A stretch of DNA of 64,000 bases from Mobula birostris (lineage: Eukaryota): assembly GCF_030028105.1 (NCBI RefSeq), contig NC_092395.1:45517346-45581345 (forward strand). The letters are read 5' to 3'. The first letter of the stretch is position 1; every line of letters begins with the position of its first letter. Below, piece by piece: positions 39,201 through 41,846 of the stretch. The translations under genes were made by a program, and so were the position numbers. The notes beneath the pieces are model-generated. The model searched no databases and had not been told where the DNA came from. It worked only from the letters and a program-made list of their open reading frames with translations.

Positions 39201-41846
39201 TGTTGGGTGTTCATTTTCTGTGACAGTGCTCCATGTAGATGGGCTCAATGGTGGAGAGGGCTTTACCTGTGATGAACTGAACAGTATCCATTACTTTTTG
39301 TAGGCTCTTCCATACAAAGGCATTGGTGTTTCCAGTTATAGAAGTTTTTTTAAGTTTTAAGTGACCTGCTGAATCTTCACAAATTTCTAAGAAGGTAGAG
39401 GCATTGCCAAGCTTTCTTTGTAATGGCACTTACATGTTGGACCCAGGACAGATCTTCTGAAGTGATAACACTGAGGAATTTGAAGTTGCTGACTCTGTCC
39501 ACCTCAGATCTTTTGATGAGGACAGGCTCTTTTTTCCGTTAGTCCTGACGAAGGGTCTCGACCCGAAACATCGACTGTACCTTTTCCTATAGATGCTGCC
39601 TGGCCTGCTGCGTTCCACCAGCATTTTGTGGGTGTTGCTTGAATTTCCAGCATCTGCAGATTTTCTCATGTTTGTGTTGATAAAGTTGGCAATACTTTAC
39701 ATTAACAAGATACTGATGATGTTGTATTTGTGTAGAAGTGGAAGTTGGGGACAAGTAGTGGAAAAACAGGAAGAATGGAAGTTATATTACTTAAAATTAC
39801 ATCTTAACCAGAGAATTCATGGAGACACAGTTCCCAAATTACTCAACCAGAAGAACTGTGGAATTTTGCGCATGTTAACTGAAACACCACAGGAGCGAGA
39901 AGTAAGAGGGAAACGAGATGTGCGACAGAAGTCTAACTGATATGCTCAAAGGGATAACATTATCTTTGCAATTAAAAATAATGCCTCTATGCATTCTGTG
40001 CAAGAAGTCCATGCACGTGTGGCCAAATGTGTAAATATACCAGAGTTGGTGCAGCAAGAACTTCGTGTTTGTATTTGTTGAGTGCATCGGCTCTGTGCTT
40101 CAGAAACAGATAATGGAAGAGTTGCGAAATCTACTTTCCATACATTTACTGCTGGCGGAAGTACAGACATTTCTCTACAGAAAATGTTAATTTTCTATTT
40201 TAAATTTCAACTGGAAAATGAAATTTTCTGTAAGACAGTGTGAGTATTTTAAAATAAAATACAGTATCACTATTGTTGAAGCAATAAAAAGAAGTTTTCA
40301 ACATCAACAATAATCCTGATATTCAAAAGATGGTGATGTTTACGGCAGACGGGGAAATGTTATGCTTGTAAAAAATAGTGGGGCAGCAATTCTTCTGTCT
40401 GAGCACATTGTGTCCACACTGATAAAATCTGGGATTAGACGATGCATAGGGGAAAAAAAAGCATCAATTAGGCAGGGTACAGATACACTGTATACAATGC
40501 TCAGTAGGTCGTCGATTACAAAAGGAAAGCTAGAAGAATTAGCTAATGTCACAGAATGTGGTATTGTGTCATTTAGACTTCCAAATTAAGTAAAATAGCT
40601 GAAAAGACATTTTGCCGTTACTGCTTTAATAAGGGTTTACGAAGTTTTGATCCAGAATTGCAAAGGGCAAGTTAATGAATGTAACGATCCAATCAACAAC
40701 TACTGCCTAAAGATTTTGACTAATCCGCAATATCGAATAGTACTAACTGGCCGTAACTATGTTTTAGATGGATCTGGCATCTCTTTGTAAGGTCCTTCAG
40801 AAAAGCTGTTGGAATACAATTGAAGCACTACAGTATGAACAAGTGACGGTAACTGTATCTTGGTGATGCTCTTTACTCAGTGACAAAGTGAAAGATCTGC
40901 TTGCACCTATAAGTTCTGATGTCGATATTATTCGATTCACTAAACATGTGTGCAATTACTTGGACAGTGGATTTCCTGACGATGATTAAGAGAATGGAAA
41001 GCTTTTGACCCTGTTGCTATTGCAAACGCAGCCAATTTTGAAATTGGAAGAGAATGGTGTACAACTGACGAAAAATACTCAGCTGTTGTTACAAACTACG
41101 ATGAAAGCATTTCTGAGAAAGTTCAGACTGGTTTAATTAAGACACCCACTGGTATATTGAACTATGGGCTTAGAAACGAAGAATTTGGAAAACCGTCAGT
41201 ACTTGTTGGCATCGTTGGAATACTTCAAGCTTCTAGTGCTGACTGTGAACTTGGATTCAGTCTTAAGAATTCAATCAAATCTAAATTCAGAAACAGACTA
41301 GAAGCAAAGTTCTGAATGATCTAATGAAGATTAAGATGTACCTTTCATCTGGATGCGAAATTAATCCGGACGGTGTTTGTAGACAATGTATTTGTAATAA
41401 AATCAGACAAGAAAAAGTTTATGAAACATAAAAGATTTTCTTTGTTGTACTGTATTTCATTATACCCTTCAATTAATAAATAAAATCAAAATAACGCGAT
41501 TTTTCAATTTTCATAGTATACATATTACAGAAATAAATCGCTTAAAGTGCCGCGCAGTTTTCAGGCCATGTAAAAAGTTTTCTGCTCAGAACAATGGCTG
41601 GTCTGCGCAGCTGGAGCAAAAATAGAGAGTAAGTTGATTTGAATTATGAAAATTTTCTCCAACCTTCATCACCACAGTGCTTTGACAGAACAACAGGCAT
41701 TTGCTGTCTCTTACCTCTTGGTACTGCTTCCTATGGAATGATTTCCAACTAGTCCAGGCTTCATCCAGTGCTGGGTCAAAGGGGAAGCCAAAAGTTACTC
41801 TCAGAAATCCAACTATCACACATCCGGCACTCAGAGGGAACTTCAT
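24102..41846 (-). CDS. Cathepsin L-like cysteine protease (papain family C1A, L/K/S subfamily), spliced CDS of 7 coding exons, 334 aa preproenzyme
   Basis: Exons 41846-41715, 37890-37768, 35322-35167, 33355-33134, 31962-31797, 26077-25972 and 24201-24102 all have AG/GT boundaries and join in frame (1005 nt, ends TGA). The product has a signal peptide, an I29 propeptide ([24 protein letters not shown]), mature N-terminus [18 protein letters not shown] (catalytic Cys), DLDHG (His) and YWIVKNSWG (Asn). Exact orthology (L vs K vs S) is not resolved, so no symbol is given. Confidence 0.96.
25972..26077 (-). CDS. Cathepsin coding exon F (catalytic His and Asn)
   Basis: ttttctgcag|(G)[34 protein letters not shown](S)|gtatgg; 106 nt, phase 1/2. 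Confidence 0.96.
26360..28170 (+). mobile_element. RTEX (RTE-X)-type LINE, 5'-truncated RT and C-terminal CCHC, in a cathepsin intron (antisense)
   Basis: [66 protein letters not shown]...EHVLHNCP; (tga)n tail; few in-frame stops. Confidence 0.85.
28415..28870 (-). mobile_element. CR1 3' end
   Basis: Homologous to 49384-49850 (aaacaggcccttcg, ccccttaaac, aagcctgcttgcatt). Confidence 0.85.
30740..30900 (+). mobile_element. Ancient DeuSINE/AmnSINE1-like or cognate LINE 3' domain remnant
   Basis: ttcactaatgt..ttga.gggagga...gct.tccccacctggt resembles the recalled AmnSINE1/SacSINE1-type 3' motif; a second remnant lies at ~46195-46265. Confidence 0.45.
31797..31962 (-). CDS. Cathepsin coding exon E
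   Basis: ccctttag|[55 protein letters not shown](G)|gtaagg; 166 nt, ends phase 1. Confidence 0.95.
32251..32944 (+). mobile_element. Solo LTR (~694 bp) inserted into a SINE in a cathepsin intron
   Basis: TGTA...TACA termini; flanks ttta/ttca (4-bp TSD, 1 mismatch); CpGs retained; SINE-like sequence continues on both sides. Confidence 0.75.
33134..33355 (-). CDS. Cathepsin coding exon D (catalytic Cys)
   Basis: tttactag|[74 protein letters not shown]|gtaatg; 222 nt. Confidence 0.97.
33746..34416 (+). mobile_element. Solo LTR (~671 bp) related to 32251-32944
   Basis: TGTAA...TTTCA termini; flanks atag/ctag; 3' region resembles the first LTR (tttaatcg.at..g.tgtatt.tctgtta.tt, cacaaac, ggtttgg.gg, acc.ggggg). 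Confidence 0.7.
35167..35322 (-). CDS. Cathepsin coding exon C (propeptide end and mature N-terminus)
   Basis: atttgtag|[52 protein letters not shown]|gtaacc; 156 nt. Confidence 0.95.
37768..37890 (-). CDS. Cathepsin coding exon B (propeptide ERFNIN/GNFD region)
   Basis: ttgcttttag|[41 protein letters not shown]|gtacgt; 123 nt, phase 0/0. Not in the ORF track. Confidence 0.95.
38690..39520 (-). mobile_element. Rex1/Babar-type LINE 3' fragment
   Basis: [26 protein letters not shown]; tail aaatttattatcaag. Confidence 0.8.
39525..39675 (+). mobile_element. Penelope-like-element-derived short repeat (right arm, contains the hammerhead)
   Basis: Shares gatgctgcctggcctgctg...cagcattttgtg...tccagcatctgcaga with the copies at 7.1-7.4 kb and 52.7 kb. 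Confidence 0.75.
39541..39576 (+). ncRNA. Minimal type-I hammerhead ribozyme motif within a Penelope-derived element
   Basis: AGTC-CTGACGA-A-GGGT(CTCG)ACCC-GAAA-CA-TC|GACT: stem I AGTC/GACT, CUGAnGA and GAAA cores, stem II GGGT/ACCC, predicted cleavage after AUC at 39572. Confidence 0.72.
39690..41610 (+). mobile_element. hAT-superfamily DNA transposon relic (degraded transposase)
   Basis: 41226-41300 translates [25 protein letters not shown], the hAT C-terminal dimerisation motif (S(A)xCERxFS...K...RNRL); AT-rich, many stops upstream. TIRs not identified. Confidence 0.75.
41715..41846 (-). CDS. Cathepsin coding exon A (signal peptide and start of propeptide)
   Basis: [44 protein letters not shown]. 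Kozak-like caccATG; acceptor ttcctctatcag 10 nt upstream of the ATG (exon starts 41856); donor GAG|gtaag. Confidence 0.93.

Follow-up and report, generated by a model that had tools for sequence, protein, structure and literature searches.

A hammerhead motif antisense in a cathepsin intron of Mobula birostris is probably an inert relic of an abundant Penelope-like element

A stretch of 64,000 nucleotides of the Mobula birostris genome (contig NC_092395.1, positions 45,517,346 to 45,581,345; hereafter the window) contains, in an intron of a cathepsin gene, a 36-base sequence resembling a hammerhead ribozyme. A sequence-only reading of the window had described it as an apparently intact minimal hammerhead of a Penelope-like element (PLE), which raises the question of whether this copy can still cleave RNA, and whose. 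Our analysis indicates that the motif is very probably a copy of the minimal hammerhead ribozyme that a very abundant PLE carries in its terminal repeat, lying antisense in the cathepsin intron, and that with a G-to-A change at 39570 it would now be an inert relic, cutting neither itself nor the host RNA.

Re-reading of the sequence gave the same 36 bases, coordinates and parts as described earlier. Helix I comprises 4 bp (39541-44 with 39573-76) and encloses the C3-A9 box CUGACGA (39545-51), an extra base, A39552, between positions 9 and 10.1, a 4-bp helix II of three G-C pairs and one U-A pair (39553-56 with 39561-64) closed by the four-base loop CUCG, and the G12-A15.1 box GAAA (39565-68). 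In hammerhead numbering, 15.2 is C39569, 16.2 is A39570, U16.1 is 39571 and C17 is 39572, and the predicted cut site lies after 39572. Both catalytic boxes and U16.1-H17 are present in type-I order, and the G10.1-C11.1 pair is formed by G39553 and C39564. The two boxes alone occur at chance level (7 window matches against 6.69 expected); the full minimal descriptor gave a single match on either strand of the window, at this site, and matched 1 of 300 dinucleotide shuffles. ViennaRNA predicted helices I and II. Folding stability was rejected as evidence, the z value being 0.14 for the window motif and ranging from 0.14 to -0.96 across all five sequences. A comparison with Rfam, proposed earlier as a check, gave no hammerhead family at E values up to 5 for the window and up to 10 for the local 221 bases.

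The proposed identity of the motif, a minimal type-I hammerhead of a PLE, was borne out when its relatives in the genome were examined. Exact 25-mers of the core occur 14,275 times in the 4.0-Gb genome and 28-mers of the tail 54,775 times, and a two-box pattern matched 70,197 genomic places as compared with 125 for the reversed control pattern, which amounts to about one two-box copy per 57 kb. A 70-amino-acid piece of the reverse transcriptase (RT), used as a query, yielded 27,596 first-look candidates, 150 of which were scored, and six long copies, selected for long open frames, were fetched. All six carry a frame of 806-1,064 amino acids with RT motifs and, downstream of it, a hammerhead motif, which in L135 begins 298 bases past the stop of a frame containing both RT and GIY-YIG. 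In four of the six (L135, L136, L137 and L139) a C-x4-C-xx-C linker leads into the GIY-YIG domain. Pfam searches matched RVT_1 (E 4e-5) and GIY-YIG (E 8e-4 to 5e-3) in the long copies; short pieces of decayed copies gave a weak GIY-YIG match in one of five cases and nothing else. The leader that follows the motif runs on into the 5' end of the frame in L137 and L138; since the leader thus reaches the beginning of the next frame, the motif would, in tandem, front the RNA of the element. As judged from this order of parts, the layout is that of the pseudo-long terminal repeat (pseudo-LTR) of an endonuclease-bearing PLE, and the linker would place the parent element in the Neptune/Nematis type (PMC8557442; published systems are cited here from the covered portions of the papers). 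The match of the window copy to L015, together with the layout of the long copies, places the window motif within this pseudo-LTR.

The intronic location and antisense orientation claimed for the motif were confirmed by exon matches, splice sites and an open frame. Papain-family exons were recognized on the minus strand by PF00112, PF08246 and motif scans; the seven exons have AG/GT borders, and the joined frame is open and contains the catalytic C, H and N motifs. We take the gene to be cathepsin L-like from its exon layout and motifs, the family matches themselves being papain-type. Within the 3,824-bp intron, the PLE fragment is separated from the acceptor by approximately 1.6 kb and from the donor by approximately 2.0 kb. 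Since the motif is antisense to the gene, the host pre-mRNA carries no hammerhead; the descriptor found none on the minus strand, in agreement with the earlier view that the host transcript would not be cut.

The description of the copy as apparently intact, in contrast, did not hold, because A39570 disrupts the 15.2-16.2 pair on which dimer cleavage depends: the two positions are C/A, and the palindromic pair for the dimer helix is lost. To place this change we used 92 distinct family copies, taken from the first 100 matches of a pattern that lies in the tail and does not overlap the motif; motif counts rest on the 74 that span the motif gap-free, the other 18 being truncated or gapped. The palindromic 15.2-16.2 pair is C/G in 58 of the 74 siblings, and position 16.2 is G in 64 and A in 9. 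As A at this position is frequent among siblings, A39570 represents ordinary CpG decay of a G, as had been proposed. The CpG positions changed alike on both sides (C7T 6, G8A 7, G12A 8, C15.2T 6, G16.2A 9, C17T 4 and G1.1A 9), and G8A is carried by 1,287 copies genome-wide. Non-CpG positions of the motif were changed in 0-4 of the 74 copies, with two exceptions, the outermost base of helix I (15/74, partly through truncation) and a subfamily variant at +33; the extra base between 9 and 10.1 is present in all 74. The catalytic bases decay as fast as the rest, and therefore there is no sign of selection on single copies. Every motif test was passed, with G-U allowed, by 31 of the 74 copies, and seven fail in the palindrome alone, as the window copy does.

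The damage in the window copy is the lost C-G pair rather than the AUC triplet, since AUC is a good cleavage triplet provided that 16.2 is paired (PMC1636495). In the active dimer of the window copy with itself the pairs would be A-U, C/A, A/C and U-A, with a calculated energy of -5.0 kcal/mol, as compared with -8.6 kcal/mol for its dimer with a G16.2 copy and -14.7 kcal/mol for two G16.2 copies. In published work, a Schistosoma minimal hammerhead was inactive as a monomer and of low activity as a dimer (PMC4209133), and the anole PLE hammerhead cuts with its protein only and is dispensable for insertion in vitro (PMC11167929). As for a partner nearby, the sister copy at 7.1 kb does carry a G at the 16.2 position, as claimed, but is itself no intact hammerhead: its minus arm is without C3-U4 and is split by an insertion of about 110 bp. 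The window therefore offers no partner copy. Two further observations concern the siblings. Among the sampled copies (L031-L114) the commonest subfamily, with 51 of the 74, has replaced the conserved G-C pair by G10.1-U11.1, whereas on the G side of that 11.1 CpG the change (G12A, 8/74) remains at decay level. Palindrome-bearing copies (L027:1497-1532) are predicted to form an inactive rod in which the core is paired with the palindrome and the cut site, and this fold is a possible built-in off state.

Several points weigh against the view that the window motif is an inert PLE relic. The RVT_1 and GIY-YIG matches fall below the curated cut-offs in both frames tested, and the 92-copy sample covers the initial 5.4 Mb of a single contig and one anchor pattern. 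Nearest-neighbour energies put other folds below the active dimer for all four pairs tested. The window copy retains both boxes and G10.1-C11.1, where the 51 siblings have G-U, and its A16.2 abolishes the competing predicted fold that pairs the core with the palindrome; on these models it may keep some protein-assisted or heterodimer activity. Finally, no compensatory change was found in helix I among 217 places in which 2.1 and 1.1 are both changed, the 100 of these that were listed looking like decay of the main family; support for the structure therefore comes from conservation and from the model in the literature.

The ends of the 92 copies suggest how the window copy arose. Counted from C3, the 3' ends lie at +92 to +99 in 30 of the 92 copies and at +129 or beyond in 42 (the reference ended at +130), giving two 3' end sites about 35 bases apart. 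This resembles the tail described for other PLEs (PMC11167929, PMC8557442), an optional feature that has been tied to two internal RT start sites (PMC11167929). The 5' ends cluster at -7 to +1 (22 of the 78 copies at risk), with an end rate of 0.031 per base as compared with 0.0014 upstream and 0.0037 downstream, and fall near the cut site in 2 of the 92 copies. Since 5' ends lie at the front edge of the motif and rarely at the cut site, we infer that the templates were mostly uncut and that, at the front of helix I, the RNA either has its 5' end or imposes a strong stop. Reverse transcription would start in the leader at either of two sites and proceed to the RNA 5' end or halt earlier. The fragment at 39527..39674 consists of about 14-18 bases of preceding sequence, the motif itself and the leader up to the long tail end (+129); its start at -18 lies a little upstream of the family pile-up. 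A search for a target-site duplication of this fragment found none. The window copy would be a short reverse-transcription product of uncut RNA. In an active element, by analogy with the literature, two motifs would pair through their ACGU palindromes and be cut slowly after C17, probably with assistance from the protein of the element. After insertion the window copy would have decayed as its siblings did, and the C/A mismatch would take out the central pairs of the dimer helix.

Whether the family itself cuts in vivo was addressed through head-to-tail joins, a search for which gave 116 places; the following counts are those among the 100 matches listed, read by eye. In 26 of the 100 joins the upstream piece stops at C17 (+27), corresponding to about 23 of approximately 89 independent loci, of which 16 are blunt and free of CpG ambiguity. 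Neighbouring positions are rarer (+25, 1; +26, 6; +28, 2; +29, 1), and a uniform null gives p = 5e-8 for the +27 peak, which is a rough guide only because the pattern, through its limit on gap length, is biased towards short ends. A second peak, of about 21 of the listed loci, lies at +33/+34, 6-7 bases past the cut, a position of no catalytic meaning. We fetched 40 join loci, divided equally between the +27 class and the +30 to +34 class. At none of the 40 does the remainder of the first copy stand directly behind the second, and a nested origin, one copy having landed inside another, was therefore rejected for the joins. A clear duplication flanks the whole composite in seven of them, and this, together with the missing remainder, points to single insertion events with a template jump. 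Most +27 loci have a short upstream piece, as expected of a fragment reaching from the RNA 5' end to the cut. These joins hint at cutting by the family in vivo, and we word this as a hint because the +33/+34 peak about equals the +27 peak; RNA structure by itself could account for both. A cap-derived G, added without a template ahead of the A at -4, was also considered and rejected, since 100 listed of the 3,037 copies ending at that position, read by eye, showed no excess of G (next base G 33, C 45, A 22). A tentative scenario, which we consider possible but rather doubtful, is that the joins are a fossil record of the family hammerhead working in vivo: the RNA would start at the front edge of the motif, a minority would be cut after C17, and the RT would jump from the RNA 5' end to a dimer-held partner, either at its cut end (+27) or behind helix I (+33/+34). 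If true, the two peaks would document how the dimer is arranged and that a PLE hammerhead is cleaved in vivo, at the level of the family and not of the window copy.

The motif is probably meaningful for the family, as suggested by comparison with a second hammerhead-bearing family. Among the 10 loci of the latter that were fetched (L181-L190), which have different flanks and a different loop 2, the 36 motif bases are 89-94% identical to those of the main family and the flanks 46-72% in all five that were compared, and the steady change falls in loop 2. Genome-wide, the neutral C7U is carried by 2,341 copies, in excess of the core-breaking G8A; this would fit a spread of U7 subfamilies, and sequence context may add to it. 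In one member of the second family (L183), 39-base tandem units are joined a few bases behind helix I, like the +34 class of the main family.

The main alternative is that the window copy is still active on a plus-strand transcript, antisense to the gene, either as a heterodimer with the RNA of another copy or with the aid of a protein. It has both boxes, helices I and II and G10.1-C11.1 undamaged and is predicted to fold into the open form with two helices; AUC cleaves well when 16.2 is paired (PMC1636495), the anole precedent requires the protein (PMC11167929), and the genome offers many potential partners. In a heterodimer, however, the core that would cut the window copy retains the C/A mismatch at 15.2-16.2, the 64-kb window holds no intact partner motif, the copy includes just 14-18 bases of the element upstream of the motif, and chance decay matches the state of the copy, given how many siblings fail in the palindrome alone or pass all tests. 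We therefore consider such activity improbable. It is less probable still that the hammerhead look is a coincidence of repeat sequence in a family that never used a ribozyme. The missing Rfam match, folding z values near 0, the failure to find covariation, the predominance of uncut templates and the G10.1-U11.1 of the commonest subfamily would all fit such a coincidence, but the four features named for PLE minimal hammerheads are present (PMC4209133), the motif stands at its expected place in the element, its conservation across families is selective with changes mainly in loop 2, and C7U exceeds G8A, to which sequence context could contribute.

Equally remote, in our estimation, is co-option of the insertion for regulation of the cathepsin gene, through splicing, antisense RNA or termination. 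The insertion does lie within an intron of an open gene; it is, however, antisense, 1.6-2.0 kb from the splice sites and 6% divergent from its best match among the fetched copies, and with two-box copies at the above density an intronic copy is expected by chance. Host-retained intronic hammerheads of the amniote type are sense to the host pre-mRNA and conserved at an orthologous site, whereas the window motif is antisense to its host. We thus prefer the reading of the window motif as a decayed and probably inert PLE copy.

The closest known systems are the PLE minimal hammerheads described by Cervera and De la Pena (2014, PMC4209133), with which the ray family shares type I, a short helix I, the extra base between 9 and 10.1, G10.1-C11.1, the lack of a real helix III, the palindromic 15.2-16.2 and an occurrence mostly as dispersed single copies from truncated PLEs. 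Helix II, in contrast, has 4 bp in the window copy and 7-8 bp in the Schistosoma families, and the window copy has lost the palindrome, making it a decayed descendant and not a working member. The 70,197 places compare with about 4,000 copies in coelacanth and 9,000 in Xenopus, obtained with different search patterns; the covered portion of the main text names no cartilaginous fish, and the supplements may hold some. The Poseidon PLE of the green anole, PAc (Frangieh et al. 2024, PMC11167929), likewise has a hammerhead near the start of its frame, two internal RT start sites with an optional 30-40 bp tail and a mainly uncut template RNA. The ray family differs in its CX2-5CxxC linker, as in Neptune/Nematis, and in the first Met of its long frame, which lies about 160 bases behind C3 and not, as in PAc, within stem II. 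Endonuclease-bearing Neptune/Nematis PLEs (Craig et al. 2021, PMC8557442) share the single frame with RT and C-terminal GIY-YIG, the Zn-finger-like linker, the pseudo-LTR, inverted 5'-truncated copies, the tail and the hammerhead. Non-LTR retrozymes (Li et al. 2026, bioRxiv 10.64898/2026.07.22.740005), reported from one chondrichthyan genome sampled, also contain a type-I hammerhead derived from PLE pseudo-LTRs but are built of tandemly arrayed units, every one with its own hammerhead, unlike the solo fragment with the single motif seen here.

The window motif is one of more than 70,000 copies of a known PLE hammerhead kind, solo and with its palindrome lost; as a likely neutral insertion it has little significance of its own. 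The family, in contrast, is a large natural data set on whether PLE hammerheads cut in vivo, and why. Published PLE hammerheads show low activity in vitro, and the covered portions of the reports describe no RNA-seq ends at the cut site; if the +27 peak reflects real cleavage, it would be the first genomic trace of in-vivo cutting and would offer a direct test. A literature search, in which subscription journals were poorly covered and supplements may list examples, found no paper describing the motif in sharks or rays.

The coordinates of the features are collected in Table 1.

Table 1. Features of the window discussed in the text (window coordinates).
Feature	Position	Strand	Basis
Minimal type-I hammerhead motif, probable PLE copy	39541..39576	+	Sequence, descriptor and shuffles, family counts
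Solo fragment of PLE pseudo-LTR, 148 bp	39527..39674	+	94% identity to natural copy L015
Old repeat fragment directly 5' of the PLE piece	39156..39529		69-76% identity to other window copies
Sister insertion of the same PLE family, inverted pair	7055..7367		Sequence comparison
Older inverted pair, related PLE family	52650..52808		15-bp target-site duplication
Cathepsin L-like gene (label presumed), 7 coding exons	24102..41846	-	PF00112 and PF08246 matches, splice sites, open frame
Coding exons	41846-41715, 37890-37768, 35322-35167, 33355-33134, 31962-31797, 26077-25972, 24201-24102	-	
Intron between the first two coding exons, 3,824 bp	37891..41714	-	Exon matches, splice sites

The surroundings of these insertions show other repeats of various ages. 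The old repeat fragment adjoining the window copy, which we take to be LINE-like (long interspersed nuclear element), does not continue beyond the PLE insertion. The insertion that splits the sister copy, at 7137-7247, contains short tandem repeats, lies within GAAA and presumably resembles a CR1-type 3' tail; the whole PLE pair around 7.1 kb interrupts a LINE RT frame. The older inverted pair of a related family has no hammerhead boxes. Its minus arm begins at base 1 or 2 after the predicted cut, a shared base leaving this ambiguous, and is a single case. Older relatives of the same terminal sequence, 70-71% identical and with boxes decayed or missing, were found at 56755-56872, 25786-25853 and 46338-46406. 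The cathepsin intron that holds the motif also contains a 109-amino-acid frame on the plus strand (40986-41315), without a Pfam match, which is presumably a C-terminal remnant of a hAT-type transposase. The host gene is one of at least six papain-family (cathepsin L-like) genes clustered in tandem at 45.37-45.84 Mb of the contig, of which the window covers this one whole gene and the last exon of the next (60189-60281).

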